This document shows positions 2,601 to 39,929 of a DNA stretch of 64,000 nucleotides, piece after piece. The stretch's first letter is position 1. The number at the start of each line of letters is the position of its first letter. The notes under the pieces are model-generated. The model did no database searches, had not been told where the DNA came from, and saw only the letters and a list, made by a program, of their open reading frames with translations. Both the position numbers and the translations under genes were made by a program. Source of the stretch: a bacterium (GTDB lineage: Bacteria; UBA8248); contig CBDBEV010000001.1 of assembly GCA_965204535.1 (NCBI GenBank), positions 32,001-96,000 on the forward strand, given 5' to 3'.

Positions 2601-2760
2601 ACGATAAATTCACGGGGTTTTCCTGTAAATTTCTGAAAATTACCGGCCATGCAAGTGGTTGTAATAAAAAGAGTTACCATAGAAACCTGAGTGTCCCGCA
2701 CTCAGATATGGCGGCAAAAAAAGTTTTTCGCCGACCCCCGCATTTGCGCGCATTTGCCCG
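2601..2760 (-). repeat. Left copy of long diverged inverted repeat (partner 25191-25370)
   Basis: The reverse complement of 2601-2730 aligns without gaps to 25241-25370 at 103/130 by hand count. Two GCG(G/C)GCAAAT-type units lie at 2741-2760. Confidence 0.95.
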
Positions 2761-2860
2761 AGGCGCTGCTTGCGGACGGCGCCGAAGCTGAAGCCGGTGA
2801 CGAGGCGCTTCCGGATCAGGACGCCGAGGATGGCCACGGGGGCGAACGACGTCAGCGTCC

Positions 2861-2876
2861 CGTTTCACGTGAAACG
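2861..2876. promoter_or_regulatory. parS: parS-type palindrome (ParB loading site)
   Basis: CGTTTCACGTGAAACG is a perfect palindrome matching the consensus TGTTTCACGTGAAACA at 14/16. It is intergenic, just past the tkt stop. Confidence 0.8.
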
Positions 2877-2878
2877 GT

Positions 2879-4915
2879 TCAGAGGAGGTCTTTCACGCGC
2901 GCGGCGACGTTCTCCGGCGTGAGGCCGAAATGCGAATATATTTCCTTGTACGGCGCGCTCGCCCCGAATCGATCGATTCCAATCACGGCGCCATCATCCC
3001 CCACCCACTCACGCCAGCCCATGGTGGCGCCCGCCTCGATCGCCACCCTCGCCCTCACTTCCGGCGGGAGAACAGAATCGCGATAGGCGGGGGATTGCCC
3101 TCGGAAAAGCTCCCAACTCGGCATGCTCACGACCCGGGCATCGATTCCACCTGCTGCCAATTCGCTTTGCGCTTCCATCGCTAGATGAACCTCCGAGCCT
3201 GTGGCGATCAATACAGCTTGGGGGGAATTCCCACTCTCCGCCGAGATGACATAGGCCCCTCGCGACAGGGCATCCGCTTCGTTCTCCTCCGAACGCTTCA
3301 AGATGGGCAGGCCCTGGCGGGTCAACACGAGCATGGTCGGACCCTCGAGGCGCTCGATCGCCACCCGCCAAGCGACAGCGGTTTCGTTCGCGTCGCATGG
3401 GCGAATGATGGTGAGGCCCGGCATGGCGCGAAGCGATGCGAGGTGCTCGATCGGCTGGTGGGTGGGGCCGTCCTCGCCCAGGCCGATGGAATCATGCGTC
3501 ATCACGTAGATGACGGGCAATTCCATCAGCGCCGCGAGGCGTATCGCCGGGCGGGCGTAATCGGTGAATGTGAAGAAAGTGGCCGCATAAGGACGAACAC
3601 CTCCGTGCAGGGCCATACCCGAGCAGGCGGCTCCCATGGCGTGTTCCCTGATGCCCCAGTTGATGTTGCGATTGGAGAAATCCCCCCTGGCGAAATTTCC
3701 CGATGCCTTGATGAGCGAGTTGTTTGAAGCCGCCAAGTCCGCGCTTCCACCGATAAGCCAGGGCATGGCGGGGGCGATTTCATTCAGTACTTCCCCGGAT
3801 GCCGCCCGCGTAGCAAGCGCCCCGCCGTCAGCCTGGAACCGGGGAATCCGGCTCTCCCAACCGGCCGGCAGTTCTCCTTGAATCGCCGCCTGAAACTTCG
3901 CAGCCAACTCCGGATTCTCCGCCTCATATTTCGCGAACCGGCGATTCCAGTCCTCTTCAAGCGCGGAGCCGCGGGAAACCGCCTCTCCCATGTGAGCGGA
4001 CACTTCATCAGGCACCAGGAACGTTTCATTCTCAGGCCAGCCATAGCTTCTTTTCGTAGCCTCGACTTCTTCATCCCCCAAGGGAGCGCCATGCGCGCGT
4101 GCGGTATCCTGATATCGAGGCGAGCCATATCCGATGTGCGAGCGAACGACGATCAAGGACGGACGTTCAGCCTCTGCCTCCGCCAAGTTGAGCGCACCGG
4201 AAATCCTGGATAAATCCTCCGCGCTGTCACCCAGGTTTTGCACATGCCAGTTGTACCCCGCAAAGCGCTTCCCTACATCATCGGAATAACTGAGCGACGT
4301 CTCGCCGTCGATGGTAATGCGGTTATCGTCATAGACACAAATCAATTTGCCGAGACCCAGATGTCCAGCGAGGGATGCCGCTTCATGGGAGGCGCCTTCC
4401 ATGATATCGCCGTCGCTCATGAACACGTACGTACGGTGATCCACTATCGAGTGGCCCGGTCGATTGAAAACGCTCGCCAAATGCGCCTCCGCCATTGCCA
4501 TGCCCAGTGCATTCATGAATCCCTGTCCCAGAGGGCCTGTGGTCGTCTCGACACCCGGCGTAAGCCCGTATTCGGGATGCCCCGGCGTCTTGCTTCCCCA
4601 CTGACGAAAACGGACGATCTCATGGAGCGGAAGGTCATAACCGCTCAGATGGAGAACCGCGTAAAGAAGCATGGAGGCATGACCACACGAGAGCACGAAG
4701 CGGTCCCGGTCAAACCATTCGGGATTTCGGGGATTATAGCGCAGGTGGTTCATCCACAATTCATACGCCAGCGGCGCCAGAGCCATTGGCGTTCCCGGAT
4801 GGCCGCTGTTCGCCACTTGCACCGCATCCATCGAAAGTGTGCGTATGGTGTGAATCGATTGTTCGGAGATGCTCATGCCGGAAAACCGCTCTTTTTCCGT
4901 CGAGAATTTCGTCAT
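2879..4915 (-). CDS. tkt: Transketolase
   Basis: [31 protein letters not shown] and [16 protein letters not shown] motifs. Alternative start at 4876. Confidence 0.98.
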
Positions 4916-5026
4916 GCCTGATATGCTCGCTTACAGGGGGAAGAAACTAAAAAAGCCGGTTCTATGCCACGTCCCGCCATCGGGGCCCGATATTTCATGC
5001 AATCCATTCAATGTGCCCGGATTGGG

Positions 5027-6214
5027 TCATGCGTTCGCCTTGCGCCGCTGCAACGTTTCGAGCCACCCTTCCAAAGTTTCCACAACTATCTGGTCAGCAA
5101 GAGGGAAAACCGGCATCGTTCGGTCTTTATCCTCTTCCGCATCATTACGCAACAGGGATGCGGCCGATTCTTCCACTTTTCGCTCAAGCGCCGATATTTT
5201 CCCCAATATCCAAGGGGCATCCTCTCCCAAGGCTTGCGCCTTTCGACACATATCCAGCGCTTGTGCATCGTTTTCCTCTTCGACGTAGAGTTCAACCATC
5301 CTTCGGAGAATTGAGTCGACGGCTTTTTCCCCGATAACACCCTCTTCTCCTGGCGCGATACCAGACTCTCGCCCCTCACTCACGGTTTCAGCTACTTTAT
5401 CCGCAGGGCTCAAAGCATCACCCAAATCTTCAAATTCGGCGGCTGACGTATCGGCGTCCTCTTCAACTGCTTCCATATTTCCGGACGCGACATCATCTCC
5501 CTTCGCCTCAACTGGTACGTTTGCCTCACCTTTTATTTTTCCTGCTATTAAATCGAGATTTTCTCCCGTCTCGGGGGATCCCGTGGGCACATCAACATCC
5601 TCGCCCCGCGATAATCGCTCTCGGATGGCAGCCAACTTCTCATTCCATTCGACTTTAGCGGGCTCAGACTCCAAAAGACGCTCATAAACGTCCCGCGCCC
5701 TATCCAGATGGCCTTGAGCCATATAGAGTTCAGCAAGAGCCGGCGTGGCCACTGCGTCCAATTCTTCCTCGGGAACAACAGGTGAGGAGCTATCAACATC
5801 GGAATCGGTTATCGTGCTTTGGGGCGATACTTCATCGGCCCCGAACACCTCCGCCGCCCTTAACGCAACTTGCGCGGCCTTTTCATCGCCCTTTTTCCGC
5901 CAACACTCGGCCAAAAGACGTTGACCCGAGATATTCCAAGGAGCGATTTCCAGGGCTTTTGCGATAAAACGGGCTGCTTGTTCGTGTTCATCTTTCGAGA
6001 GGAGTATTCCTCCAAGCAGAACACCCGCGGCTGCGTAGTTGGGATAGGTTGCCAATCCACCTCTCAGGAGATTTTCGGCCTGGTCTACTTCACCTTTTTC
6101 CCATAAAAGGGATGCCAAAGGGAAAAAAGCAGCCGAGGCGGGGTATTGTTGCAAACGCCCTTCCAAAGCTTTGATTCGGGCTTCTGGATTACTCAAGCGA
6201 CGTATCATTGACAC
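5027..6214 (-). CDS. Tetratricopeptide-repeat protein
   Basis: N-terminal TPR helices, ATPALAELYMAQGH motif, acidic linkers and C-terminal LEGWL helix. Confidence 0.8.
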   Translation of the reverse strand: MSMIRRLSNPEARIKALEGRLQQYPASAAFFPLASLLWEKGEVDQAENLLRGGLATYPNYAAAGVLLGGILLSKDEHEQAARFIAKALEIAPWNISGQRLLAECWRKKGDEKAAQVALRAAEVFGADEVSPQSTITDSDVDSSSPVVPEEELDAVATPALAELYMAQGHLDRARDVYERLLESEPAKVEWNEKLAAIRERLSRGEDVDVPTGSPETGENLDLIAGKIKGEANVPVEAKGDDVASGNMEAVEEDADTSAAEFEDLGDALSPADKVAETVSEGRESGIAPGEEGVIGEKAVDSILRRMVELYVEEENDAQALDMCRKAQALGEDAPWILGKISALERKVEESAASLLRNDAEEDKDRTMPVFPLADQIVVETLEGWLETLQRRKANA

Positions 6215-6357
6215 CTGATTCTCGGCAGGGAATAAAGGGCACCTTCATGCGTATGAAGAAATGCTAGCAAAGGGCGCCCTGCCCTGACAAGAGCTTCGTA
6301 TCTCCTGCAGTCATCCAAGTTCTCATGCCTGAAAGAGTTATAAATTCGATTTTATCG

Positions 6358-6786
6358 TTATGAATCGACAACGGCCAAGGCGTTCACCTCGATGAGACAA
6401 CGTGGATCTGTAGCCAGTTGAACCACCTGAACGGTGGTAGTGGTTGGTTTGTTGTCTCCGAAATACTCCGCCCACACCTTGTTTAGGGAATCTTGACCCT
6501 CCATGTTGGTTACAAATCGGCTGGCAGAAACGACATCGCCAAAATCAGCGTCCACCGCCTCAAGGCTTTTTTTCAAGTTCGCCAACGCCGCTCGAGCCTG
6601 CCCTTCCATATCCCGGGGCATGGCATCAAATTCTTCCGGCTGATGCGGATGATGGTGATAGACGGGTGCTGCGGTTACTCCAGCAAGAAATACAAGGCTA
6701 CCCTCAGTTACTTTGATAACCGGCGCATAAGGCATCCACAGATCAGGTGCATCCGGCCAATGGAGATGCTCTACTTTCTTACCCAT
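6358..6786 (-). CDS. RidA/YjgF (Rid) family protein
   Basis: VFLAG, Q...AL.NL...L, N.VW..YF...P..T.VQV..L and IEVNA motifs. Start chosen at MGKKV, downstream of a GAAAGGA RBS. Confidence 0.88.
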   Translation of the reverse strand: MGKKVEHLHWPDAPDLWMPYAPVIKVTEGSLVFLAGVTAAPVYHHHPHQPEEFDAMPRDMEGQARAALANLKKSLEAVDADFGDVVSASRFVTNMEGQDSLNKVWAEYFGDNKPTTTTVQVVQLATDPRCLIEVNALAVVDS

Positions 6787-7105
6787 TTCATTTCCTTTCA
6801 TATATGTAACTGCCCATATTCCAGATATTTTCATCCGGCCTTGTAAACACTCTGCACTTTTTGAGCAATTCAAATGAACGATTCGATCGAAGAATCCTCT
6901 CGTCAACATTATCGCTTTCATTTTCACATCATATCACCAGGTAACAAGTGTGACGCCCGCACAACCTACTCGGCCTTCTACCTCAAAACCGCCGGTTTCC
7001 ACGCCATGGTTAGAAACTACGAAACTTCAAATGTATTTACGCTCATCGCAATCTATTCGATAATATTCATTCGTGCTCTTCTCCTGCATCACAAAAGGAT
7101 ATTCC

Positions 7106-7870
7106 ATGTCTATGAAACCACTAGCGGATAAACGTGTCATCATCACAGGAGCATCAAGCGGTATCGGAGCCGCTATCGCTCACGAATACGCGAAAGCGGG
7201 AACTCACATATGGAGCGCAGGAGGCAGCGACCTTCAAGGACTACAAAGCACCATTGATGCGTGTAAAAACCTTGGCGTAAACGCTGGTGGAAAATGTTAT
7301 AATTTATCTAAAGCGCAGCGTTCGTCTCAACTGATTCGCGATGGCGTCGACTTTCTTGGTGGACTTGATATTTTAGTCATTTGCGCGGGCACAAGAGCCT
7401 TCAAACCCATCGTCGAAATCACGGATGATGAAGTCGACCTTTTATTCGAAGTCAATGCGAAAGCCGCCTACATCGCATCCCGAGAAGCGGCAAAGGTGAT
7501 GATTCCTCAAAAAAGCGGCTCTATCCTGATGATTGGCTCAGCTGCCGGCCACCGTGGCAGAGCCGATACGAGTCTATACTCAGTGACTAAATCCGTGCTT
7601 CATCACCTTACGAAATGCTTGGCTATTGAATTAGGACCTCATGGGATTCGCATAAACTGTCTGGCGCCGGGCCTGGTTGCAAGCCCGCGCGTAAAGGCAA
7701 GGCTCGATGCAAAACCTGAATATCTACAGTCCAGGCTAGAGGGCATACCACTCCATCAAATCGGAACGGTTGAAACCATGGCGGCCACTGCTCTGTTTAT
7801 GGTCTCTCCTGGAAACGAATTCATGAATGGCTCGATTGTGCTTTCGGATGGGGGCGTCACGGCAGGGTAG
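7106..7870 (+). CDS. Short-chain dehydrogenase/reductase
   Basis: TGASSGIG, YSVTK (YxxxK) and C-terminal DGG. Confidence 0.92.
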   Translation: MSMKPLADKRVIITGASSGIGAAIAHEYAKAGTHIWSAGGSDLQGLQSTIDACKNLGVNAGGKCYNLSKAQRSSQLIRDGVDFLGGLDILVICAGTRAFKPIVEITDDEVDLLFEVNAKAAYIASREAAKVMIPQKSGSILMIGSAAGHRGRADTSLYSVTKSVLHHLTKCLAIELGPHGIRINCLAPGLVASPRVKARLDAKPEYLQSRLEGIPLHQIGTVETMAATALFMVSPGNEFMNGSIVLSDGGVTAG

Positions 7871-7875
7871 AAAAC

Positions 7876-9231
7876 ATGCGCGATGCGATGATGAGAATTT
7901 CAAGAAAGAAATTTTCTCTTTTGATAGTTCTGGTCTGCTTCTTCACCTTCTATCCGTTTGAAAATATCGCTGCAGGAGAAACTGCCCTAGATACCCACCA
8001 AACTCTCACCGCATTGGTTTCAAGCAGAACGAAATGGTTATTGACAGCACCTGCCGAAAAAGGCTCCTCCAAGTCAAATGCTACTCTGCTGGCCTTTACA
8101 ATGGATGGAGATTTTCATCCGATTACCTTCAAGAAAACAGGCGGGGTATTTCGTGTAAATGTGCAAGATCACCCCACCCCTTCCGACCTGGCTGCTAGTG
8201 TCCCACCCACCCAGCTACCAGATGGCAGTTTTGTCGGTGCAGGAAAAAGCGGAATGTTCATCAACGTCGACACTATCGAGCGACGTTGGTCATTCGTCTG
8301 GCCGAGCATCCGCCCTTCAATCCTATCGAAACCCGCTGTATTGGACAGAGCTAACGTGGCAATGGTCGGAGTCGATGGCTCCATACTTTTATTCCAAAAA
8401 AAAGAAGACAAATGGCTGCAAACCCAACTGATAAAAGCGAAAACAGCAAGGGTATTGCCAGATGCTGTTTTAACGACAGCCGATCTGGATGGCAATGGTC
8501 GAAAAGAACTTATCGTGCCTGCTGTACCATCCAAACTATACAGGCACGCCGTGCTCGGCGATGATATCGAACCCACGGAAATTCATGCGTATCGATTCAA
8601 CCAAAATTCTCTCGAACTGATGGCTACATACACCGCAGGGAAGAACAGTGTTTTTGAAGCCATTGGCACCCTCGTCTCCGACTTGGACAAAGACGGGAAG
8701 CATGAAATTCTCGTTACAAAAAGCGATTTCGATAGTGGGGCAGCCCATCTCGTTTTGGGAATGAGGAACAAAAAACTCATGCTCAAGGCGCGAAGCGGTG
8801 CAATCGGGGCCGGAAATCGCTGGTCGCATCTGTTGGGCGCATTCAACATAGATGGCAGCGCTCCTAAAATTCTAGCCGTAGAAACGCCGCACCTGTCAGG
8901 CCTTTTGCTGGCGCTGAGGCTAAGCGGCGATCGGCTCCGCGAGCGAGCTCGCATGGCTGGTTTCACTACGCATTCGGTTGGTTCCAGAAACCTTTGGAAA
9001 TTCGCCTTGCTAAGACGCCGTGGCGTTGTGGAAGCCGTGATGCAAGAAATCGGCCAGCAATATTTGAGCGGTCTCGCGCTCTTCGGAAATCGCTGGCACT
9101 TCAGGTGGTCGCGCCCTATTCCCTCACCCGTTCGATCCAATTTGCTTACCGCAGATTTCAACCAAGATGCGAAAGACGACATCGCTTTCGTCGATCAAGC
9201 CGGTCTCGTGCACATCTATTTATCCAAATAA
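7876..9231 (+). CDS. Secreted FG-GAP/VCBS-repeat protein
   Basis: Signal-like N-terminus and repeats ADLDGNGRKEL, DLDKDGKHEI, ADFNQDAKDDI. Confidence 0.78.
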   Translation: MRDAMMRISRKKFSLLIVLVCFFTFYPFENIAAGETALDTHQTLTALVSSRTKWLLTAPAEKGSSKSNATLLAFTMDGDFHPITFKKTGGVFRVNVQDHPTPSDLAASVPPTQLPDGSFVGAGKSGMFINVDTIERRWSFVWPSIRPSILSKPAVLDRANVAMVGVDGSILLFQKKEDKWLQTQLIKAKTARVLPDAVLTTADLDGNGRKELIVPAVPSKLYRHAVLGDDIEPTEIHAYRFNQNSLELMATYTAGKNSVFEAIGTLVSDLDKDGKHEILVTKSDFDSGAAHLVLGMRNKKLMLKARSGAIGAGNRWSHLLGAFNIDGSAPKILAVETPHLSGLLLALRLSGDRLRERARMAGFTTHSVGSRNLWKFALLRRRGVVEAVMQEIGQQYLSGLALFGNRWHFRWSRPIPSPVRSNLLTADFNQDAKDDIAFVDQAGLVHIYLSK

Positions 9232-9329
9232 ATTCTCATCGATTTAATTCAACTGCGTGAAACGAACCGAACCAAGAGATGTCCTCTAATCCCTGCAGAC
9301 TAATGTCTTATAGCAGGGAACTCAGCTCT

Positions 9330-10640
<1,311 letters not shown>

Positions 10641-10813
10641 TTAAAACCACTCCCATCGCCTTGCGCTCCAAAGTCGCCTAGGGTAGCCCATCTTGAGCGA
10701 GGGATAAAAGACGGAAAAGAACTTTTATGCTCTTATAAATTGATCTTTGAAACGTCGAATGATATCGCAATAAACATTCTATTTATTTCCAGAATGAAAA
10801 GGAAAGTTATGAG

Positions 10814-12025
10814 ATGCCTCTGACAGGTGTACGTGTATTAGACCTAAGCCGCTTGCTGCCCGGCGGGCAATGCACATTGATGCTCGCCGATATGGGGGCA
10901 GATGTCATCAAAATAGAAGAACCGCTGCGCGGCGATTATATCCGCCTCGCATCTCCTTTTGATGAGCATGGCGTATCCCCCCTTCACCTCTGCTACAACC
11001 GCAACAAACGCTCCCTGGCTTTGGACCTTAAAAACGTAGATGGCGTATCCACACTCCTCAGATTGGTGAGAGATACAGACGTGCTCGTCGATAGCTTTCG
11101 GCCCGGGGTGATGGAGCGCCTTGGCACTGGCTATCAAATACTCAAAAAAGAGAACCCCGCCCTCGTCCATTGCTCTATCACCGGATATGGACAAGAAGGC
11201 CCTCTCGCCAGAACTCCGGGTCATGACTTGAACTTCCAGGCCCTCGGCGGTGTCGTAGAACTCACTGGCGACGCCGGCGGTCCTCCATATGTGCCCGGGG
11301 TGCTCATCGGGGATGTGGGCGCCGGCATGTGGGCGGCTTTCGCCATACTCGCAGCGTTGCGCCTCGCCGAGCGGACGGGCGCTGGACAATTTATCGACAT
11401 GTCGATGCTCAATGCCGTGATGAGTTTCCTATCCATCCATGGGCAAACATATCTCTCGACGGGACTGAGCCCAGGACGCGAAGAGATGCGGCATAATGGC
11501 CGGAGACCATGTTATCGTCTCTATCCCACCAAAGACGGTCGGATGCTCTCCGTCGCCTGCTCGGAACCGAAGTTTTGGGTGAATTTGTGCGAGATGCTCG
11601 GGCATGAAGATTTTTATGACGATTATGGCGCCAGAGGAACGCGACGCACAGAAGTGATTCAAGCACTCAATAAAACTTTTCAATCGAAGGCACTCGAAGA
11701 GTGGGTTGCGTTTTTTGATGGCGCAGAAGTATGTGTGAGCCCAGCTCTTGATATGCACGAAAGCTTCGGACACACACAGGTTCAATCGAGTGGACTCGTA
11801 AGGGAATATCAACATCCTGTCAAAGGGACTTATCCCGGCACGCGGCCAGCCCCAAAATTCTCGAACCTGCCTATTAGAGACTCTCTCCCGCCACCCCGCC
11901 TGGGAGAACATTCAGTTGAAATTCTAAAGGAATATGGGTTTCAAGATGAAGAAATTGAGGGTTTGCTGGCATCCGGCACCTCTCACAATGGCACCGACCC
12001 GGTGGGTGAAACCATCAGCGAATGA
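10814..12025 (+). CDS. CaiB/BaiF family III CoA-transferase
   Basis: GVRVLDLSRLLPG, LADMGADVIKIE, NRNKRS and GHD motifs. Confidence 0.93.
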   Translation: MPLTGVRVLDLSRLLPGGQCTLMLADMGADVIKIEEPLRGDYIRLASPFDEHGVSPLHLCYNRNKRSLALDLKNVDGVSTLLRLVRDTDVLVDSFRPGVMERLGTGYQILKKENPALVHCSITGYGQEGPLARTPGHDLNFQALGGVVELTGDAGGPPYVPGVLIGDVGAGMWAAFAILAALRLAERTGAGQFIDMSMLNAVMSFLSIHGQTYLSTGLSPGREEMRHNGRRPCYRLYPTKDGRMLSVACSEPKFWVNLCEMLGHEDFYDDYGARGTRRTEVIQALNKTFQSKALEEWVAFFDGAEVCVSPALDMHESFGHTQVQSSGLVREYQHPVKGTYPGTRPAPKFSNLPIRDSLPPPRLGEHSVEILKEYGFQDEEIEGLLASGTSHNGTDPVGETISE

Positions 12026-12039
12026 ATCTACTTCAATCT

Positions 12040-12504: not shown

Positions 12505-12531
12505 AAGGATCCAGTCCGGGCAGTAGAATCA

Positions 12532-14854: not shown

Positions 14855-14870
14855 CTTTCATTCTGATGAC

Positions 14871-15227: not shown

Positions 15228-15249
15228 GGGTCTTCATCCCCCACAATAT

Positions 15250-15957: not shown

Positions 15958-17095
15958 TCAAAACGAAATTGTTTCGATGAATAATCTCGTCATAGTCCTT
16001 GCTTCCAAGAATCGAGGCGATTTCCCTGGTTTGTTTCCCGGCGATTCGAGCAGCATCCTCACTTGAATAATTCGCCAGTCCGCGCCCAAAAGCCATGCCT
16101 TGCACATCTTGTATCTCCACCACGTCACCAAACCGAAAATTTCCCCCAACAGATACGACACCACTGGGCAATAGGCTTTTCCCTCTCTTCAACATCGCGT
16201 TTACGGCACCGCTATCGAGCTTGAGCCACCCGCGAGGTTTGGCCGTTGTTCCTATCCAGCCCTTTTTCCCCTTTAAGCGCGCGCCATTCGGCACAAAAAG
16301 CGTCCCCAACTGTTCCCCCATCACCACCCGTTCAATGACATTAGGGTCCCTGCCTTTCACGATAAGTGTGCTTATGCCCACTTTATTGAGGATGTTAACG
16401 GCCTCAACCTTCGTGCGCATGCCCCCATGGGCAAGTGGGTTTGGACTGGTGCCTGCGACCGACGCGATTTCCTTAGGTAGACCTTCAACACGAGAAATCA
16501 AACGCGCCGCTCTTGATTGCCGGGGATCTTCATCATATAAACCCGCCACATCTGACAAGATGATGACGAGACCTGCTTGAACCATTTGTGCCGTCTGGGC
16601 GGCTAGTGTGTCGTTGTCCCCAAAACGGATTTCCTCAATGGAAACCGTATCGTTTTCGTTCACAATCGGGAGTACGCCTTTACTAACCAATGCCTCAAAG
16701 GTATTACAGGCGTTCAGGAATCGGCTTCTCTCATCTAAATCTGAATGGATGAGCAAAACCTGCGCCGTCTCGATTCCCCTTTGTTTGAATGCACGGCCAT
16801 ATGCTTCCATCAAGATGGGTTGGCCAACGGCAGCGGCGGCTTGACGCTCAGGGACTGCTTTAGGAATTTCTTTAAGCCCCAGCCTTTTTACACCAGCCGC
16901 AATAGCTCCAGATGAAACAACAACGACTTGCCTCCCCTCTTCTCTGAGTTTCGCGACTTGGGAGGCGATACGCCCCAAAACCCTTCGGTTGACACCTAGT
17001 TCATCAGATGCCGTCAAAACCGAACTTCCCACTTTGACCACAATGCGTCGGCTTTGGAGAACAGGGTCGTCCCTTTTAATCATCGTCTCACTCAT
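15947..17095 (-). CDS. proB: Glutamate 5-kinase
   Basis: VVKVGSS, VSSGA, NENDTV, FGDND, GGM.TK motifs and a PUA domain. Confidence 0.98.
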   Translation of the reverse strand: MSETMIKRDDPVLQSRRIVVKVGSSVLTASDELGVNRRVLGRIASQVAKLREEGRQVVVVSSGAIAAGVKRLGLKEIPKAVPERQAAAAVGQPILMEAYGRAFKQRGIETAQVLLIHSDLDERSRFLNACNTFEALVSKGVLPIVNENDTVSIEEIRFGDNDTLAAQTAQMVQAGLVIILSDVAGLYDEDPRQSRAARLISRVEGLPKEIASVAGTSPNPLAHGGMRTKVEAVNILNKVGISTLIVKGRDPNVIERVVMGEQLGTLFVPNGARLKGKKGWIGTTAKPRGWLKLDSGAVNAMLKRGKSLLPSGVVSVGGNFRFGDVVEIQDVQGMAFGRGLANYSSEDAARIAGKQTREIASILGSKDYDEIIHRNNFVLIEE

Positions 17096-17106
17096 TAGCT
17101 CTTTGT

Positions 17107-18421
<1,315 letters not shown>

Positions 18422-18433
18422 TTCCTTATCCTT

Positions 18434-18751
18434 TCACCCCGATCTGAGGATGTCTGTCACTTCTATTTGAGTATAAGGCTGCCTATGCCCTCGTTTGGTG
18501 CGGACTTTCTTGCGGCGTTTGAATCGAAAAGCAATAACTTTTTTTCCCCGCCCGTGCTCACGAATCACCGCTCTTACTTTGGCACTATCCAACGCCTCTT
18601 TTTCTGCAACAACATCTTCCCCATCTACGATAAGTCGGACATCCTCAAACTCGACACTTTCTCCAACATTCCCAAGCAAGCGCTCGACCAAGATTTGATC
18701 TCCTGTTTCGATGCGCATCTGTTTACCACCAGTTTCCACTACAGCATACAT
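18434..18751 (-). CDS. rplU: 50S ribosomal protein L21
   Basis: MYAVVETGGKQ...GHRQPYT; canonical rplU-rpmA-obgE order. Confidence 0.99.
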   Translation of the reverse strand: MYAVVETGGKQMRIETGDQILVERLLGNVGESVEFEDVRLIVDGEDVVAEKEALDSAKVRAVIREHGRGKKVIAFRFKRRKKVRTKRGHRQPYTQIEVTDILRSG

Positions 18752-18900
18752 TCAAACATTCTCCTTGACGCCCAAATTATGCTTTGGTCTTAAAAATCAA
18801 CTATTTCCCTAACTTCTGACCAACGTGGAGGATATCTATCAATCCAGCCCCTAAAAGTCAATTCAAAGTCTGAACAAAATGACTATGTTTTTCATTGTTT

Positions 18901-19299
18901 TTATTTTCTTTTCTTCTTGATCAAGCTAAACGTCACCCGTTCGGCCCGATACGATATGGTACGCCTGACAGGCAAATATCCGTTTTTTTGCACAGATACG
19001 GTAAAACCCTTAAAGACATCTGTTATGCCTACCTTGAATTTTAGGCGCAAAGGTGTCTTGCCTTGAAAAACATCATTAATGAAAACATCAGCCTGCGGTG
19101 GATTCGAGGTGATGATAAGTTGACGGTCCTTGAATCCTTTAACCGGGTTTTCAACATTTCTCTCCCACCATTTACCCATTTGCTTCCTGGTTTTGGCGCA
19201 ACCCGATATACTTGGAAGAAACAAAAGGAGAATACAGAAACCCAGAATAAACCTTGATGAAGTTTTACACATATCCCCTTGATTCCATTTTCGGAACAT
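18901..19299 (-). CDS. PEGA-domain lipoprotein
   Basis: Hydrophobic leader ending ISGC (lipobox), then ITSNPPQADVFIN....GKTP and K.GY. Confidence 0.75.
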   Translation of the reverse strand: MFRKWNQGDMCKTSSRFILGFCILLLFLPSISGCAKTRKQMGKWWERNVENPVKGFKDRQLIITSNPPQADVFINDVFQGKTPLRLKFKVGITDVFKGFTVSVQKNGYLPVRRTISYRAERVTFSLIKKKRK

Positions 19300-19431
19300 G
19301 ATTCAAAACCCTATGAAAATCGCCCGACGTGAAAACGCCAAAAGATATTCAAAACATCAGTTTACCCTGAAAACATCATGAGGAAAAACACCTCAAAATT
19401 CAGCTGCCCCCGATTTTATTGCGGCCTCTTG

Positions 19432-20355
19432 CTACGCGGGTGATTCGCCCACCTCCTGCCCCGACCATTCCTCAAACATTTGCAGCAATTCCGTCTGGTC
19501 TGAATCCGGCCCGTATTTTTGTAAACCAAGACCATATATCTGCCTGGCATGATTGAGATAAAACGCCGCCACACCGTTTTCGCGTGCCAAATCGCTCCCC
19601 ATCGAGAGATCCTTGTGCATCAATCCCGTGGAAAAACCACAGGTGAAATCCCTGGGTAGAAGAAAGCGGGGCCATTTATCTTTGGTAGCACTATTCATGC
19701 CTGAGCCACCATTGAATACTTGAAGTGCCTTTTCGGAGTCTAAACCTAACTTCGATGCTAAAACCATGGCCTCCATAGATGCGAGCAGGCTCGTGGCTGA
19801 TAGAAAGTTATTTACGCATTTCATTGCATGTCCGGATTCTGGTGCTTCATCGATATGAACAATGGTTTTGCCCAATGTCTCGAAAATAGGCATCGCGGCT
19901 GCAACAATCTCTTTGGGACCGCCTGGCATGATCGCCAGAGTGGCGGCTTCTGCACCTACGACACCACCCGAAACCGGTGCACCGATAAGGTGTAGACCCT
20001 TGGCTTCCAGACGTGACGCAAGAGCGCTCGTCCTCGTGGGATAGGAGGAACTCATATCGATTATCAATTTTTCCTTATCCAGATGCGTGGATATGCCATC
20101 CGGCCCATCGACCACGGCATCCACGACATCGCTATCGGGCAACATTGTGATGACAACATCGACCCGCCTGGCGAGGTCGGCCAAGCTTTCTGCTCCTTGC
20201 ACTCCATCATCCCTCAAGGCCGCGACATTGTCCGGCCTCGTGTCAAAGGCCACGACCGCGTAGTCACCACGCCTCAGATTTTTCGACATAGGCGTTCCCA
20301 TCTTCCCGATTCCGACAAAACCGATAGTGACGCTTCCTGGTTCTAGAGTTTTCAT
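19432..20355 (-). CDS. 3-hydroxyisobutyrate dehydrogenase-family NAD(P)-dependent oxidoreductase
   Basis: GFVGIGKMG, IDMSS, APVSGG..GA and G.AMK..NN motifs. Confidence 0.92.
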   Translation of the reverse strand: MKTLEPGSVTIGFVGIGKMGTPMSKNLRRGDYAVVAFDTRPDNVAALRDDGVQGAESLADLARRVDVVITMLPDSDVVDAVVDGPDGISTHLDKEKLIIDMSSSYPTRTSALASRLEAKGLHLIGAPVSGGVVGAEAATLAIMPGGPKEIVAAAMPIFETLGKTIVHIDEAPESGHAMKCVNNFLSATSLLASMEAMVLASKLGLDSEKALQVFNGGSGMNSATKDKWPRFLLPRDFTCGFSTGLMHKDLSMGSDLARENGVAAFYLNHARQIYGLGLQKYGPDSDQTELLQMFEEWSGQEVGESPA

Positions 20356-20531
20356 GATTACCTCGCTGTCTGGATGAAATTTTTTATTGAAGACACCGCC
20401 ATGCGTGAGGATGTTTTCATTCGCTCGAAGGTTTTTGTCAATCCCCGGATGGAGTGGTAAGCTTTTCAGGAATTTCAAGCTTTTCTCATCAATCCGCCCC
20501 TTTTTTCCATATGCCGCGCAAGGAGAACAAA

Positions 20532-21257
20532 ATGGCGCCGATTTCGGCGGACGAGGTAGTGTGTTATCTGGAAGAGAATCCTGGTTTTTTCATCGAACAT
20601 CCGGATTCACTTCGCCAAAGCGGCCTGCTGACACAAGACAGCACTTCAGCCAGGGTCTTGAACTTGCGAGCCAAACTTTTTGACCGCCTTAAAGGCGAAA
20701 GAGAGGATTTGATACGTCTTCTCGATGAAACGATAGAAATCGTTCGCCAAAATGAACAAATCGAAAAGGACTTCATCGCGATTGAACAACTTCTCTTTGA
20801 GCAAGCACCTTCATTGGCCAGCCTTACGGAAATCGTAAAGAACATCGAATCGCGCTTTGGAATTGAATACGCGGGCTTTTTACTTCTAGAACCTATCGAT
20901 GGCATTCCGGTTATCGCGGCAAAATCTGACGAATCAGCCCGCATCCGCCCATTAGGCAAAATAGAAGAAGAACTCGTCCCCATACAAGGGGGCGTTGTGC
21001 TGAAAGGCAAATTGGAGGGAGGCGGGGGACCCTTGTTCCCAAGTGCACTGAGCGAAAGAATACAATCGTCCGCTATTGTACCTTTAGAAATCCATGAGAA
21101 AAAAATCGGTTTTCTCATATTGGGTTCAAAAGACCCCGAGCGATATCAAGAAGGGATGGCGACCCACCTCCTCCGGCGCCTTGCAATGCGTTTGGCTTTG
21201 GGTATTTCCATCTTTCAGCGATTCAACAATGGAAAAACGGCACAATCGACTCTTTGA
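20532..21257 (+). CDS. DUF484 (YigA-like) protein
   Basis: V..YL.ENP.FF..HP, coiled coil, GAF-like S.A..PL and LGS.DP.RY..GM.T. AAGGAG RBS upstream. Confidence 0.85.
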   Translation: MAPISADEVVCYLEENPGFFIEHPDSLRQSGLLTQDSTSARVLNLRAKLFDRLKGEREDLIRLLDETIEIVRQNEQIEKDFIAIEQLLFEQAPSLASLTEIVKNIESRFGIEYAGFLLLEPIDGIPVIAAKSDESARIRPLGKIEEELVPIQGGVVLKGKLEGGGGPLFPSALSERIQSSAIVPLEIHEKKIGFLILGSKDPERYQEGMATHLLRRLAMRLALGISIFQRFNNGKTAQSTL

Positions 21258-21304
21258 ATCAAAGCGCTCGATTCGCCATGTTCTCCTTTCCCGCTAATGA
21301 ATCA

Positions 21305-22696
21305 TCAGGCTGGAACTCCCTGCGTTTTGGACGCAAGTTCCATGACCTCGGAGATACTGCTCAGATTTTCCAAGTTCCTGACCCGATCGATGAGCAAATC
21401 ACCCGTTTCCTTTTCGAGCACAGGGGCCGTCATCACGCGGAATCGTTCGATTAACTCATCCCACGTCAACGGATTGCGTGAATCCCCCTTGGGATAATCC
21501 TGATGCGCTTCGAAAACGCCGCGATCAGTCTCGATTTCGACACGCGCTTGCCATTTGTCCGGAAATTCCTTTTCCATTTCCGCATCGCCGTAGCATTCAA
21601 TTTTCTTGATAATGGAAGAGTAGACCTGAGAACGAAGGAAATCGTCGGCATACTCATCAAGCCCCGCGGCGCGCCTGAGAATCGCTACCGCCACGGCGTA
21701 TTGAAGGCTGAACTGCGCATCAACGATGTTTTGCGGATTCGTTTTCATATCATAGGGTTCGATGACCACCATGACGCTCGTCTCTGGAACCCGGACTTTC
21801 ACCCGCCTGATTTCCTCAGGCTGAATATCATGTGCTCTGCAAACTTCGATTGTGGCGTCAATGGAAGCGTGGTTATAGCGACAACAGGCGTAGGGCTTTA
21901 TGGCACTCTCGCAGATTTCCCAGTACTCACCAAAGTGCTCCACGACATACTCGGGCGTATAGTCATCACTATGGCCATGCAAAAATCCCGTTTTCCCGCC
22001 CAGAATATCTTCCGGCCCCGTATAACCCTCCTGGGCCAGATAGGCGGCGATGATACCGCTATGCGCCGCCCATCCCGGGTGAAACCTCTTCGTCCAGGCA
22101 CCGTTATCGAGATATTGCATCGAGCCAGCCGCCTGGCTGCCCGAGATGCCCATTGCATTGGAGGTGGCCTCGACCGACAGCCCTAGAAGCTTCGACGCCG
22201 TGATCGCGGAGGCGAAAGTGCCGCATGTGCCCGTGGGATGGAACCCGCGCTCATAGTGGCTCGTGGGGTTCACGGCATTTCCGATGCGATTGGTGACTTC
22301 ATAACCCGCCACGATAGCGGCGATTACCCACTTCGGATCAGGCTGATGCGCCTCGGCAACGGCTAACGTACTGGGCATGACGCTGACGGCAGGATGCAGG
22401 CTCGAGCGCGTAGTCACATCATCCATTTCGGTAGCGTGGCTGACGCCGCCGTTCACCAGCGCGGCATGAGGGGCATCCGTTTTCAAAGCCGAACCGATAA
22501 TCGTGCACGGCCCGCCCCGGGGAGCGCGCTTTTGGGCGAAATTATGAAATACCCGCGAACTGGCCGCTTCCACAGCTCTCAATGTGACGCCGAGGTGATC
22601 GAGAAGGAAATACTTTGCGCGCTCTCTGGCCTCATCGGGCAGAGAATCATATGTAATGGCGTGAACGTGCTCGACAAGCATTCGGCTGATATTCAT
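21305..22696 (-). CDS. MmgE/PrpD family protein
   Basis: NG..SHA.EMDD, HP, GFHPTG, K..HPG, IKPYACC and AQFS motifs. Confidence 0.93.
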   Translation of the reverse strand: MNISRMLVEHVHAITYDSLPDEARERAKYFLLDHLGVTLRAVEAASSRVFHNFAQKRAPRGGPCTIIGSALKTDAPHAALVNGGVSHATEMDDVTTRSSLHPAVSVMPSTLAVAEAHQPDPKWVIAAIVAGYEVTNRIGNAVNPTSHYERGFHPTGTCGTFASAITASKLLGLSVEATSNAMGISGSQAAGSMQYLDNGAWTKRFHPGWAAHSGIIAAYLAQEGYTGPEDILGGKTGFLHGHSDDYTPEYVVEHFGEYWEICESAIKPYACCRYNHASIDATIEVCRAHDIQPEEIRRVKVRVPETSVMVVIEPYDMKTNPQNIVDAQFSLQYAVAVAILRRAAGLDEYADDFLRSQVYSSIIKKIECYGDAEMEKEFPDKWQARVEIETDRGVFEAHQDYPKGDSRNPLTWDELIERFRVMTAPVLEKETGDLLIDRVRNLENLSSISEVMELASKTQGVPA

Positions 22697-22931
22697 TCGA
22701 ACATCTCCTTCCACTGGAAGACGGCAGGTAATTTCGAGTCGTAAGCCCGCGGCTGCGCAGGCATTTTTCTCTATCCGGAAATCATAGCAGAACTGGCTAT
22801 ATCCTGCCTCAACGCAAGAGCGGGAAATACGACTCATCCCCCCTCGGGCCACGGATGCGTTTGTCACAGGACATGGCTTGCGGATAGAATTTCCATCACT
22901 TCTGCATTCTCATCCATTCTGGAGGCATGAC

Positions 22932-23276
22932 ATGCAATCCTGCGTCTTTTGCAAAATCGTAGCCGGCGAGATCCCCTGCAAAAAAGTGTATGAAGACGAC
23001 GCATTGTTTGCATTTGAAGACGCCAACCCTGCGGCGCCCACACATATTCTGATCATTCCCAAAAGACACATGGAGACGCTCCACGAAATACAGGATGCGG
23101 ACAAGGAGTTGATTGGCTCGATTTTCGTCGTTGCGAACGAAATCGCCCGGAAACGCGGAATCGCGCAAGATGGTTTTCGAATCGTGGCGAATTGCGGAGA
23201 AAACGGGGGCCAAACGGTCTTTCATATCCACTTTCACCTCCTGGGCGGGCGTCGCATGGAATGGCCGCCGGGCTAG
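22932..23276 (+). CDS. hinT: Histidine triad nucleotide-binding protein
   Basis: CVFCKI, AP.HILIIPK.H and GQTVFHIHFHLLGGR...WPPG. Confidence 0.95.
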   Translation: MQSCVFCKIVAGEIPCKKVYEDDALFAFEDANPAAPTHILIIPKRHMETLHEIQDADKELIGSIFVVANEIARKRGIAQDGFRIVANCGENGGQTVFHIHFHLLGGRRMEWPPG

Positions 23277-23385
23277 CAGTCGCATCGTGCGTGAAGTGGT
23301 GTAACTGAATGGCGAAGCCGGTGAATCCGCCGAGCCGCAAGGCGCCTGATGCAATATCGCCGGAATGCCGATGCCCTCATGGAAC

Positions 23386-24015
23386 CTACATGACGCGAAA
23401 CCGCCGCTCCATGGCCCGGCTCCATTTGCTCGCGTGGTCACCGTCGAACAAAATATCCGGGTCCGCAGGCGCCGTATACCAGTCTCCGCGCCTCATCTCG
23501 CTCTCCAGTTGTCCGCCCCCCCAGCCGGCATAGCCGACCACGATGACGATTTTCTCGGGCCGCCGGCCCCGGGCCATGGCCCGGAGCAGCGAATCCACCG
23601 GGCTTACCGCTACATTCTCTCCCACTTTATGCGCCACCCCGAGTTCTTGCTCCCTCGTATGGAGCACGAAACCGGTATCGGGCGATACTGGCCCGCCGTA
23701 GTGAATGTCCACGCGGCCCATGTCCCCCCGAGGCGCCTCGATACCGAAGCTCCTGAACAGCGCGGAGAGGGACATGTTCTGCGCGACGCGGTTCAAGATC
23801 AGCCCGAAAGCCCCCCTTTCGCTGTGCTCCACCAGCAGAATGACGCTCCGGCGAAATCGACCGTCCGGCATGCCCGGCCGCGCGACCAGCAACTCGCCCT
23901 GGTGGGATCCGAGCAGCGGGAGAAACGCCCCCTCCAGGTTCTTGTCCTGTTCCTGGGCGGAGGCGGAGGCGGCGAAAAACAACACCACCATCGCAGCGAG
24001 AAGGATTCGCTTCAC
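23386..24015 (-). CDS. YqgE/AlgH family protein with N-terminal signal peptide
   Basis: LLVA.P.M.D..F.RSVIL, GGPV and GYAGW..GQLE.E motifs. GTG start directly after the mnmA stop. Confidence 0.88.
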   Translation of the reverse strand: MKRILLAAMVVLFFAASASAQEQDKNLEGAFLPLLGSHQGELLVARPGMPDGRFRRSVILLVEHSERGAFGLILNRVAQNMSLSALFRSFGIEAPRGDMGRVDIHYGGPVSPDTGFVLHTREQELGVAHKVGENVAVSPVDSLLRAMARGRRPEKIVIVVGYAGWGGGQLESEMRRGDWYTAPADPDILFDGDHASKWSRAMERRFRVM

Positions 24016-24016
24016 C

Positions 24017-25090
24017 CTAGGCCACCCAGCCCCCGCCGTAGAGCACGTCGCCGGCGTAGAAAACGGCCGCCTGCCCCGGTGCCACGGCGCCCAGATACGC
24101 GGGGTCATGGGGCCTGATCTCGACGGTACCATCCCCTTTGGGCTTGACGTCGCAGGCGGCGGCGCGGCCCCGGTGCCGCACCTGCACCTGCAAATCCGCG
24201 GATTCGGGGGGAATCGACCAGCGCACGTCGCGGACCCGGAATACCTCGCGCGCGAGGGCTTTCCGTTCGCCCACCACGACGGTGGCAGAATCCGCTTCGA
24301 GTTCCACCACGTAGCGCGGGGGGCCGCCCCCCAAATCGAGGCCCCGCCTTTGCCCCACGGTGAAGTTGGTCACCCCCCCGTGCCTGCCGAGCACGTTTCC
24401 CTCCAGGTCCACGATGTCGCCCGGCCTGTCGACCCCCGGTTTTTCAGATCTCAGGAAAGCGCGGTAATCATCCTTCGGCACGAAGCAAATCTCCTGGCTT
24501 TCGGGCTTCTCCGCGGTGGGGAGACCCAGTTTCCGGGCGTATTCCCTCGTTCGCTCCTTCGTGAACTCGCCCAGGGGGAACGCGGTGCGCGCGAGTTGTT
24601 CCTGCGTCATGCCGAAGAGGAAATAGGTCTGGTCCTTTTCCCTATCAAAACTCCTGGCGACGCTCAGCCTCCCGTCGACCTCCACCCTTCTCGCGTAATG
24701 GCCCGTCACGAGCACCTCCGCACCAAACGCCACCGCGCGCTCGGCCAGGTAGTCGAACTTCACGGCCTGGTTGCACTTGACGCACGGCACGGGCGTTCTG
24801 CCGCTCTCGTATTCTGAGATGAAGTCTGCGATCACGCTCTCGCGGAAGGATTCGCGCACGTCCATCACGTAGAAGGGGATGTCGAGCCGGGCCGCCACGG
24901 CGCGGGCGTCGGCCAGGTCGCGCGGCGCGCAGCAGCCCCTGTGGAAGGACTCCTGCGCGGGCCTGTCGGCGAGGCGCAGCCCCACGCCGATGGTCTCATG
25001 GCCCGCCTCCACCATGAGGGCCGCGGCCACGGAAGAGTCCACCCCGCCGCTCATCGCCACCACCACGCGCTCCGCCATCACCGCCTCCAT
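24017..25090 (-). CDS. mnmA: tRNA-specific 2-thiouridylase
   Basis: AMSGGVDSSV, TP.PC..CN..VKF, TGHYAR, KDQTYFL, ESQEICF and PGQAAVFY. Confidence 0.98.
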   Translation of the reverse strand: MEAVMAERVVVAMSGGVDSSVAAALMVEAGHETIGVGLRLADRPAQESFHRGCCAPRDLADARAVAARLDIPFYVMDVRESFRESVIADFISEYESGRTPVPCVKCNQAVKFDYLAERAVAFGAEVLVTGHYARRVEVDGRLSVARSFDREKDQTYFLFGMTQEQLARTAFPLGEFTKERTREYARKLGLPTAEKPESQEICFVPKDDYRAFLRSEKPGVDRPGDIVDLEGNVLGRHGGVTNFTVGQRRGLDLGGGPPRYVVELEADSATVVVGERKALAREVFRVRDVRWSIPPESADLQVQVRHRGRAAACDVKPKGDGTVEIRPHDPAYLGAVAPGQAAVFYAGDVLYGGGWVA

Positions 25091-25190
25091 GGTTCACCAT
25101 CCAATGCCAGGGCACGTTATACACCACACGCTCCGCCCGAGGCCACACGGCGCGGGGAGGCGGGCGGCGGTCTGTCCGGCGGGCGCCGCT

Positions 25191-25370
25191 GCGGGCAAAT
25201 GCGGGCAAACGCGGGCAAACGCGGGCAAATGCGCGGGAGCCGAAAAACTTTTTTTGCCGCTATATCTGAGTGCGCCACACTAAGATTTACATGATAACTC
25301 TTTTTATTACAATGCTTTATCTGACCATCATTTTTCAGAAATTTATCGAAAAACATCGTGAATTTCTCGA
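25191..25370 (+). repeat. Right copy of long diverged inverted repeat, preceded by four GCGGGCAAA(T/C) units
   Basis: Four exact 10-bp-period units at 25191-25230; 25241-25370 matches the reverse complement of 2601-2730. Confidence 0.95.
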
Positions 25371-39927: not shown

Positions 39928-39929
39928 AA

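Follow-up and report, generated by a model that had tools for sequence, protein, structure and literature searches.

Native core genes in a GC valley between inward-facing copies of a dispersed, polar repeat element

A GC valley of core genes between two inverted elements

The window, that is, the whole 64,000-nt stretch of bacterial DNA analyzed here, contains a block of housekeeping genes (tkt, eno, nrdR, rplU-rpmA-obgE-proB-nadD-rsfS, and mnmA) that the initial annotation had placed between two inverted noncoding elements. Both the genes and the elements were confirmed: arms of 129 nt (2602-2730 and 25241-25369), 80% complementary, form the longest inverted pair of the window. Gene calls come from our own dipeptide-scored ORF caller and not from a standard annotation; the features of the locus are listed in Table 1.

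The gradual GC valley described for this block, running through genes, holds in 1-kb GC, GC3, and GC4 (GC at fourfold sites). GC in 1-kb windows is 0.43 to 0.54 at ~5.5 to 21.5 kb versus 0.61 to 0.73 in most flanking windows. GC3 per gene is 0.42 to 0.56 on the valley floor, 0.68 in tkt, and 0.86 in mnmA, versus mostly 0.7 to 0.95 outside, where the exceptions are short foreign-looking genes. At each edge, GC4 changes through genes over 4 to 5 kb, from 0.91 to 0.43 across 2.5 to 7 kb and from 0.47 to 0.94 across 19.5 to 25 kb. Four of the five 60-nt lines initially counted by hand agree with our values (0.60, 0.52, 0.48, and 0.43), while the line at 24781 has a GC of 0.60 and not 0.68, the 1-kb value around it being 0.67. 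GC skew is negative in all 1-kb windows but one between 3 and 25 kb.

A chimeric assembly was ruled out, as independent single contigs cross the domain unchanged and show no internal join. A 17,533-nt contig of run X1 is identical to 2718-20250 and an 8,508-nt contig of run X2 to 16763-25270 (0 differences each); a 21,828-nt contig of run X3 begins at 3443. The three runs stem from a single study and may represent the source sample itself. No contig spans the boundary elements, which are repeats. Contig depth in run X1 was 42 on the floor versus 61 to 73 outside, and in run X2 it was flat.

Table 1. Features of the domain and its borders (window positions)
Feature	Position	Strand	Content or basis
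Remnant mobile module, outside the domain	902..1950	.	Integrase fragment and HTH_17 gene
End motif of integrative mobile element	2449..2468	-	Abuts the array on its upstream side
Left element, facing inward	2548..2793	+	nhmmer, 26-copy profile, E 2e-61; alignment to right element
A-array of left element	2583..2657	+	Five to six direct 10-11-bp units, consensus TTCGATAAAT
7-5-7 palindrome	2687..2705	.	Mark of the "full-length" element type, 25/76 copies
B repeats, left element	2740..2759	+	Two tandem 10-mers
parS-like palindrome, perfect	2861..2876	.	Just inside left element; genome has two parS-like sites
Left ramp	2879..6200	.	tkt and TPR gene; GC4 ~0.8-0.9 down to 0.5
Valley floor, genes part 1	6200..20500	.	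rid, SDR, FG-GAP gene, eno, caiB-like, nrdR, rpiB, TPR, dksA-like
Valley floor, genes part 2	6200..20500	.	rsfS, nadD, proB, obgE, rpmA, rplU, PEGA gene, garR-like; no dispersed repeats on the floor
Right ramp	20500..25090	.	DUF484 gene, prpD-like, HIT, yqgE, mnmA; GC4 climbs to 0.94
Right element, facing inward	25193..25429	-	A-array 25317-25406; four B repeats 25193-25232
Variable zone upstream of right element	25875..30163	+	203-aa ORF (GC3 0.25), type ISP restriction-modification gene; gene content varies between relatives

The left element consists, in order, of a phased repeat array, an AT-rich spacer, a palindrome, and tandem B repeats. B repeats adjoin many arrays, in both orientations, and are present at this site also in G007, a genome without the valley. 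Outside the domain, the remnant module comprises a broken C-terminal tyrosine-integrase fragment (902-1303, + strand) and an HTH_17 excisionase-like gene (~1381-1950, - strand) and belongs to an 8-kb duplication, whose end falls inside the left element. Most relatives have a ctpA-like left flank here, which has been replaced in G000, G002, G013, and G020. A structured RNA or tRNA was rejected as the identity of the element, Rfam giving 0 matches at gathering score in the whole window. A DnaA-box array was likewise rejected: canonical boxes near dnaA (C2 1.87 Mb), according to what we take to be the consensus, differ from the array unit. The palindrome just inside the left element matches the presumed parS consensus, but a parABS partition domain, one of the options first proposed, is contradicted by the presence of just 2 parS-like sites versus 76 arrays, even though one of the two is inside this left edge, and by the position of parB (C2 1.85 Mb).

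The element is dispersed, and GC is lower on its downstream side

The initial annotation took exactly two inverted copies as the mark of a domain and many copies unrelated to GC valleys as evidence against one. Neither describes the genome: G000 harbors ~76 copies, each an array of phased 10-11-bp repeats, and these are tied to valleys by their orientation. The host group is sponge associated, and 16 of 23 congeners carry 34 to 71 copies. The core pattern had 0 matches in viral contigs. Among metagenome contigs, it had 21 exact matches.

At 61 of the 74 scorable copies (of 76), GC4 of genes 3 to 15 kb downstream is below that of genes upstream. Segments between inward-facing neighbors have a median GC4 of 0.71 versus a mean of 0.854 and a minimum of 0.80 after shuffling of orientations (0/1000 shuffles as low). 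Conversely, the 72 edges of the 36 low-GC4 segments coincide with an inward copy in 25 cases and with an outward copy in 4, while a shifted control gave a mean of 5.2 and a maximum of 18 inward copies (2000 shifts). Among the convergent pairs of 8 to 50 kb, 12/16 have an inside median GC4 of 0.50 to 0.76, with flanks of 0.81 to 0.94 except for one of 0.62 and one that was not scorable; the other four (GC4 0.86 to 0.88, one just 8 kb long) have no valley. One 50-kb valley (C1 1343-1396 kb) lacks arrays at both edges in G000 and at the right edge in G022, and sits within a 115-kb segment whose two arrays both face away. A downstream-truncated model (loss, 136.3) and an upstream-source model with a 45-kb reach (135.3) both improved modestly on the null (151.6).

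Insertions concentrate upstream of arrays and occur within their core

Considering all 76 copies, 77/194 and 86/201 intergenic gaps bear repeats within 10 kb upstream, as opposed to 14/194 and 13/204 within 10 kb downstream, a fall from 0.40 to 0.07 that lone and paired copies share. With dispersed repeats as a proxy, interiors are depleted of insertions, as in an immune domain of the Mu type. The 12 pairs hand-chosen for having valleys contain 2 repeat loci in 279 kb versus 1.6 per 10 kb elsewhere. Upstream, the enrichment declines with distance (0.43, 0.31, and 0.24).

Arrays are also integration points. Both in a 94-kb insert of G000 (C1 826.6-921.1 kb) and in a 19-kb insert of G002, homology switches inside the array, so that filled and empty alleles cross over within the array core, as at an attB site, with the cargo upstream of the array. 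In a consensus built from 63 copies, two 11-bp inverted arms (9/11 positions matching) flank a 7-bp asymmetric spacer (11-7-11), resembling what we take to be the layout of an att site. Integrase-family matches lie within 6.3 kb of an array in 9/12 cases, and 11 of the 29 genome copies of the mobile-element end motif are located ≤500 bp from one, those upstream being opposite-facing (6) and those downstream same-facing (5). Noisy skew switches fall within 10 kb of an array in 13/22 cases. G000 encodes 8 TrwC relaxases as well as F-type transfer operons. What speaks against an oriT mimic or Hfr origin as the identity of the array is that, for the 7 relaxase starts examined, the 20 kb upstream contain no array and that TrwC is absent from four valley genomes (G004, G009, G010, and G019).

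The genes are native, and a second species repeats the pattern

The segment had also been suggested to be invertible or replaced, and interior genes of another lineage would have spoken against a domain. Gene order is identical in all relatives examined, no flipped allele was seen in the relatives compared, the trees of floor genes and mnmA share a backbone, and floor and edge genes are similarly identical to relatives. The genes are therefore native, and, the edges being ramps and not sharp, neither a foreign replacement nor a horizontally acquired island accounts for the valley. Basal genomes (G001, G007, and G015) keep the gene order with a GC4 near 0.9 and no valley. Upstream of mnmA, the element profile matches at 15/15 close-relative loci with upstream DNA and at 0/4 basal loci; G007 has weak inward arrays (relaxed score 26). 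In G019 and G004, arrays with differing repeat units face inward at both ends, are the sole two peaks in 40 kb, and enclose a valley, while G009 and G010 have low GC4 at the locus without a detectable array.

The polar GC pattern is repeated in a second species, G022. In the 0.8 of 4.3 Mb compared, 10/16 arrays have a downstream gene whose G000 ortholog is ≤0.4 kb from a G000 array, and GC4 is 0.80 to 0.83 upstream and drops to 0.69 to 0.75 downstream. In a transplant comparison, genes shadowed only in G022 changed by -0.069 versus a baseline of -0.059.

Divergence from the sister genome G002, compared over ~1.2 of 4.4 Mb, is lower in valleys: G<->C differences per G/C site are 0.004 to 0.007 in 3/4 valleys versus 0.030 to 0.037 in four outside zones, and differences are more clustered outside. 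Exclusion of recombination is not absolute, since block exchanges happen inside valleys. In the valley at C1 1428-1441 kb, 10 to 33% of fourfold sites per 2-kb bin differ from G002, and G000-G016 distances jump inside the present domain, in a gene-tree comparison that shared only one outside gene.

The AT shift is strand symmetric and extends to intergenic DNA

The shift is present in every trinucleotide context (0.76 to 1.65 log units), with no skew relative to element orientation. Single-strand deamination was rejected for lack of strand bias, and motif-specific methylation because the excess in CpG contexts is only mild (1.15 to 1.65 versus a mean of 1.30). Translational selection alone was also rejected, as intergenic DNA is shifted too (0.46 versus 0.56) and the low values of rplU and rpmA contrast with the high ones of the main ribosomal cluster. 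Compared to the rpoBC-ribosomal cluster, deep valleys have 1.7-fold-higher GC->AT and 2.7-fold-lower AT->GC changes, near the 2.4 and 2.0 that we calculate for a loss of fixation bias. That cluster is repeat free and import poor, yet its GC4 is 0.86 to 0.87; scarce cross-species imports alone thus make no valley. Repeat-free core blocks of 45 to 59 kb without inward arrays keep a GC4 of 0.82 to 0.87, whereas convergent segments at equal distance from repeats have 0.68 to 0.71. Away from arrays, GC4 dips slightly with distance from repeats (0.88 to 0.83).

None of the trans-factors searched for (H-NS, HU/IHF, ParB, ComEC, DUF1931, SMC, Lsr2, HTH_17, dnaE, and PDDEXK_1) discriminates valley genomes from others. 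H-NS (PF00816) has 0 matches in G000 (95.7% complete); Lsr2 (PF11774) and the DUF1931 histone are absent from 5/5 genomes; HU/IHF has 10 copies in G000; and genomes with and without valleys do not differ in SMC, ComEC, dnaE, the AddAB-type nuclease (PDDEXK_1), or two chromosomal HTH_17 genes.

Discussion

The bounded domain of the initial annotation stands insofar as it holds native core genes under an evolutionary regime of their own; of the options then offered, exclusion of recombination fits best, with the exchanges noted above and with a protein that we can only presume. In our judgment, the chances are evenly balanced that polar boundaries bound by a protein keep recombination and insertion away from the DNA downstream, so that GC decays there. 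A host protein would nucleate at the phased array, one per helical turn, and coat or loop the DNA on the downstream side, where recombination and integration would reach less. Its action would run ~20 to 50 kb and halt at an opposing array, so that convergent pairs would enclose deep bounded valleys and lone copies would cast weaker one-sided shadows. If gene conversion is scarcer there or selection less efficient, base composition at synonymous and intergenic sites would drift to an AT-biased mutational balance, and the ramps may correspond to the reach of recombination tracts begun outside. A positive relation between recombination and GC has been reported for most bacteria (PMC11879095). 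More tentatively, and with somewhat less than even confidence, we propose a convergent-rule insulator system in which the protein polymerizes or extrudes a loop one way from each array and stops at the next opposing one. This would split the chromosome into protected core domains and open zones, and attB sites in the boundaries would steer mobile elements.

Arrays might instead be passive scars of attachment sites, left at the borders of conserved operon blocks, and valleys the long invariant core far from variable sites. We consider this very unlikely. Arrays are indeed integration points and synteny breakpoints, GC4 is slightly lower far from repeats even without arrays nearby, one valley is array-less, and recombination coldspots are mostly housekeeping genes (PMC11879095), but long repeat-free blocks keep the GC4 that convergent segments lack, the same block is GC-rich in basal relatives, and arrays with species-specific units persist at both ends in genomes without the integrase. 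It is less improbable, though still unlikely, that arrays are starts of one-way upstream DNA exchange (Hfr-like transfer by integrated conjugative elements, packaging, or resection) and valleys the places left unreached. The marginally better fit of the upstream-source model, the declining upstream repeats, the TrwC genes and transfer operons of G000, the insertions relative to G002 at array cores, the nearby integrases, and the array-less valley between outward arrays all agree with such exchange, as do the core-genome hotspots created by mobile elements in Staphylococcus aureus (PMC4036114). Against it, the four valley genomes without TrwC have no matching integrase either, most other divergent segments of 90 to 140 kb have no central valley, and the insertion drop is sharp right at the array. 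Of the relaxase operons, those of two elements point to the adjacent array and those of two others point away from it, with oriT placed where we presume it to be in F. Moreover, basal genomes that lack the valley reach a GC4 of 0.9 with neither arrays nor TrwC, which would require that a general route had been lost in addition.

Alternatively, protein-delimited domains could owe their AT shift not to scarcer recombination but to a mutation or repair process that differs within them, for instance if damaged C or G were repaired less well beneath a coat. The low divergence of the GC-rich rpoBC cluster and the mild CpG excess would fit, and scaling by GC-conservative changes makes the GC->AT excess of valleys dominate, on small counts (14 and 47 G<->C events). 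We nonetheless regard this as improbable: strand asymmetry by element is absent and motif specificity is not strong, the lower AT->GC rate is not what a pure GC->AT mutator would give, and such a process does not by itself account for insertion depletion.

Bacterial low-GC blocks are usually taken as foreign, and compositional island detectors will mislabel core blocks such as these, where native housekeeping genes bounded by oriented elements have lost ~0.3 synonymous GC in place. Under either reading of the shift, they offer a paired within-genome test of whether bacterial GC is set by mutation or by recombination, the latter acting through biased conversion or more efficient selection, as a comparison across more than a dozen species can set these genes with a boundary against their counterparts without one. 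If the convergent-rule insulator were true, a bacterium would have isochore-like GC structure, a natural experiment on recombination maintaining GC. Provided that shielding holds, the arrays amount to a chromosome-partitioning system with a convergence rule, for which searches of the open-licence full text of PMC and bioRxiv gave no bacterial precedent.

Comparison with known systems

The AT-rich replication terminus, fork traps, and the Ter macrodomain likewise combine oriented boundary sites with core genes that are locally enriched in AT. The fork trap initially suggested is contradicted by the many domains per chromosome, by the absence of skew reversal inside this one, and by the lack of skew by element orientation. 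The array unit matches the motif tCGATAAATT reported for H-NS, which is proposed to spread over AT-rich DNA from high-affinity sites (PMC2094087). Unlike H-NS domains, the valleys occur in a genome without an H-NS domain, their unit differs in G019 and G004, they cover housekeeping genes, and their AT richness was derived in place, with the lowest GC away from the site. The S. aureus hotspots are similar in showing more exchange near integration sites and less in GC-poor core-dense regions, but their effects are up to 2.5-fold, and the available part of the study describes no polar element or large GC shift (PMC4036114). Inverted arms, a 7-bp spacer, helical-turn repeats, and neighboring integrase and HTH_17 genes recall tyrosine-recombinase att sites and RDF/BldC-type head-to-tail binders (PMC11963761), whereas here ~76 chromosomal copies exist and are conserved at orthologous sites where the integrase is missing. 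Finally, the phage Mu domain, or "Mu genome immunity," is likewise a tens-of-kb domain between oriented ends with a proposed protein coat and an insertion-protected interior, in which one prophage guards itself via MuB and a central gyrase site (PMC2837660 and PMC3820752). In the present case, by contrast, dozens of host sites surround native core genes, lone sites act on one side, and the effect on base composition is long term.

Results

Inverted boundary elements enclosing housekeeping genes and a GC valley had been claimed in the initial annotation, and these points were borne out: the two arms are 80% complementary, GC per kb descends to 0.43 to 0.54 in the floor, and the gene names were confirmed. 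With a gene set from a purpose-written ORF caller, GC3 was 0.42 to 0.56 in the floor genes, 0.68 in tkt, and 0.86 in mnmA, and mostly 0.7 to 0.95 in genes outside. Rfam and ARAGORN gave no matches on the window. The annotation had also considered a chimeric join. Two independent contigs (17.5 and 8.5 kb), from runs that possibly represent the source sample, span the floor and both ramps with 0 differences, and the gradient is therefore not a chimera; none of these contigs bridges the repeated elements themselves. Sponge metagenomes are among the sequencing runs containing matching DNA.

Coordinates of features in the window, in the genome studied (G000; contigs C1 and C2), and in a second species (G022)
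Feature	Location	Remarks
Left element, arm	window 2602-2730	
Right element, arm	window 25241-25369	
parS-like palindrome	window 2861-2876	perfect; parB and dnaA lie 1.8 Mb away in contig coordinates; G002 (sister genome), G011, and G016 have an intact copy, G022 and G008 a degenerate one
REP/MITE-like palindromic repeats, several families	window 30142-35917, 45206-47227, 55889-56539	all outside the domain
Glycine/sarcosine/betaine reductase (grd) cluster	window 38158-44211	with selenoprotein B gene
Three low-GC3 ORFs	window 39448-41015	inside grd cluster; GC3 0.34-0.46
Core block	C1 1343-1396 kb (L098-L100)	rib operon, mutS, xerD, proS, ftsH, rpoN, metK
Faint array-like stretch	near C1 1,396,100	
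Second integrase family	C2 1499 kb, C2 2356 kb, C1 826 kb, C2 345 kb	tandem genes of ~400 aa, adjoining degenerate arrays
C1 stretches duplicated at C2 ends	C1 183-215 kb	14.7 kb, >99.6% identical
Cas9-like gene	C2 start, L086:29-2973	two adjacent ORFs (HNH part, RuvC-III part)
Enolase match	G022:C1:3028165-3029457	one in-frame TAG, possibly a sequencing error

Exactly two inverted copies, which the annotation had named as support for a domain, were not what we found: the element belongs to a dispersed family with 79 profile matches in G000, 26 of them nearly full length. Its constant portion is an array in which the unit TTCGATAAAT is directly repeated five to six times at a spacing of 10 to 11 bp, and tandem 10-mers (B repeats) adjoin many arrays in either orientation. 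We analyzed the 76 copies with E < 0.25 from 103 matches at E < 10. A periodicity scan independent of the profile returned 81 peaks, 74 of which coincide with known copies, and zero on the shuffled contig strand. A 28-bp core pattern matched 34 to 71 times in each of 16 of 23 congeneric genomes and 4 times in the valley-bearing relative G004; there were 0 matches in G001, G007, G009, G010, G015, and G019, and 0 in 19 genomes from other genera of the same family.

Copies unrelated to GC valleys had been put forward as a refutation, but the orientation of the copies tracks GC at fourfold sites (GC4), which was lower downstream, the side the array points to, in 61 of the 74 scorable copies. Genes between inward-facing (convergent) neighbors had a median GC4 of 0.71, and 1,000 orientation shuffles never fell below 0.80; for tandem copies the median within the 20 kb downstream was 0.83, and between divergent copies it was 0.87. 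Median lengths set the short convergent segments (21 kb) apart from the long divergent segments (97 kb). Twelve of the 16 pairs of 8 to 50 kb enclose a valley and 4 do not; in the valley-bearing pairs, GC4 drops from 0.82 at the array to 0.60 to 0.63 at 4 to 5 kb, and lone copies cast a one-sided shadow of about 20 to 50 kb. Dispersed repeats occupy 0.40 to 0.43 of the intergenic gaps in the 10 kb upstream versus 0.06 to 0.07 in the 10 kb downstream (genome-wide share, 0.23), alike at lone and paired copies. Across the genome of G000 the strand-balanced skew reverses sign many times, suggesting that inversions have recurred; at several of the switches an array lies within a few kilobases.

The basal relatives G001, G007, and G015 have an identical gene order with a GC4 near 0.9 (G015 from only 10 kb), and a further 160 kb of G001 contained neither array nor valley. 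FastTree trees of eight floor proteins and MnmA, rooted on L026, share a common backbone (G001 plus G007, then G015, G009, G019, and the rest), against the different lineage of the interior genes that had been named as a refuting outcome. The domain consists of native genes whose GC valley is a derived state. The element is matched upstream of mnmA in 15/15 loci of close relatives and 0/4 basal loci. G019 and G004 carry different repeat units, and the sole peaks within 40 kb are their inward arrays, one at either end; in G022 (0.8 Mb examined), arrays and valleys occur again at orthologous sites. Counting against a tie between array and valley, G009 and G010 are low in GC4 without a detectable array, the arrays of G007 are weak and enclose no valley, and a 50-kb low-GC4, repeat-free core block of C1 lacks an array at its edges.

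Most array-ending insertions and synteny breaks between G000 and G002 lie 6 to 360 bp from an array, and at a 94-kb insert of G000 and a 19-kb insert of G002 homology switches inside it. Neither element of the window matches its counterpart in G002, so copies of the family are overwritten by recombination; a remnant with an end motif lies upstream of the left one. For 11 arrays this motif occurs within 500 bp and in a fixed orientation. Of the 12 integrase matches, 9 fall within 6.3 kb of an array. The center of the array consensus can be read as 11-bp inverted arms separated by a 7-bp asymmetric spacer, and inverted arms around a short asymmetric spacer are the usual layout of a tyrosine-recombinase site. 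The site appears to be targeted by at least two integrase families. C1 and C2 probably belong to a single chromosome that was broken into two contigs at a repeated mobile region, since both C2 ends duplicate C1 stretches and the C1 ends are adjacent in G002.

Compared with G002, 4 to 5% of fourfold sites differ in three of four valleys (G<->C, 0.004 to 0.007), 19% in the fourth, and 9 to 11% in four outside zones (G<->C, 0.030 to 0.037). Differences are more clustered outside than in valleys (variance, 3.8 versus 2.3 times binomial; lag-1 correlation, 0.48 versus 0.15), and across 340 bins higher GC4 goes with more GC-conservative transversions (rho, 0.53). We infer that the low divergence common to several valleys and the ribosomal cluster is the clonal frame and that the outside excess reflects imports. 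Despite few imports, the ribosomal cluster has a GC4 of 0.86; cross-species import itself therefore does not sustain GC, which must be maintained by within-species conversion or selection, unless mutation differs.

Discussion

The pattern is solid and replicated; its molecular cause is inferred. We give roughly even chances to a putative host protein that would bind the phased repeats of the array and shield the DNA downstream until the effect fades out or meets an opposing array, with fewer conversions and insertions and hence GC decay. Block exchanges do occur inside valleys, so that any shielding is partial, and ten protein families looked for yielded no candidate binding protein. Exchange directed upstream of the array matches the GC track equally well; we regard it as rather unlikely.

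Altered mutation or repair we consider similarly doubtful. The AT shift is present in all sequence contexts with a mild CpG excess, extends to intergenic DNA, and has no strand bias. Rates in deep valleys versus the ribosomal cluster, from small counts, are 0.036 versus 0.021 for GC->AT and 0.048 versus 0.131 for AT->GC, compatible with a loss of fixation bias. That the arrays are passive att scars seems improbable to us. Carriage of the integrase (12/23 genomes) and TrwC (14/23) is patchy in the genus and both are absent from four valley genomes, and we therefore take them as users of a host site rather than its cause.

Positive relations between recombination and GC, with housekeeping coldspots (PMC11879095), and hotspots adjoining mobile elements (PMC4036114) are already known. 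Searches of the open-licence literature found no description of a polar multi-copy element bounding AT-shifted core domains. The H-NS motif of PMC2094087 is identical to the array unit, yet a domain search of G000 found no H-NS. As analogies only for shielding by an array, PMC11963761 gives head-to-tail binding with one protomer per turn, an established mode for BldC and a proposed one for RdfS, and PMC2837660 and PMC3820752 describe for Mu a bounded domain immune to insertion.
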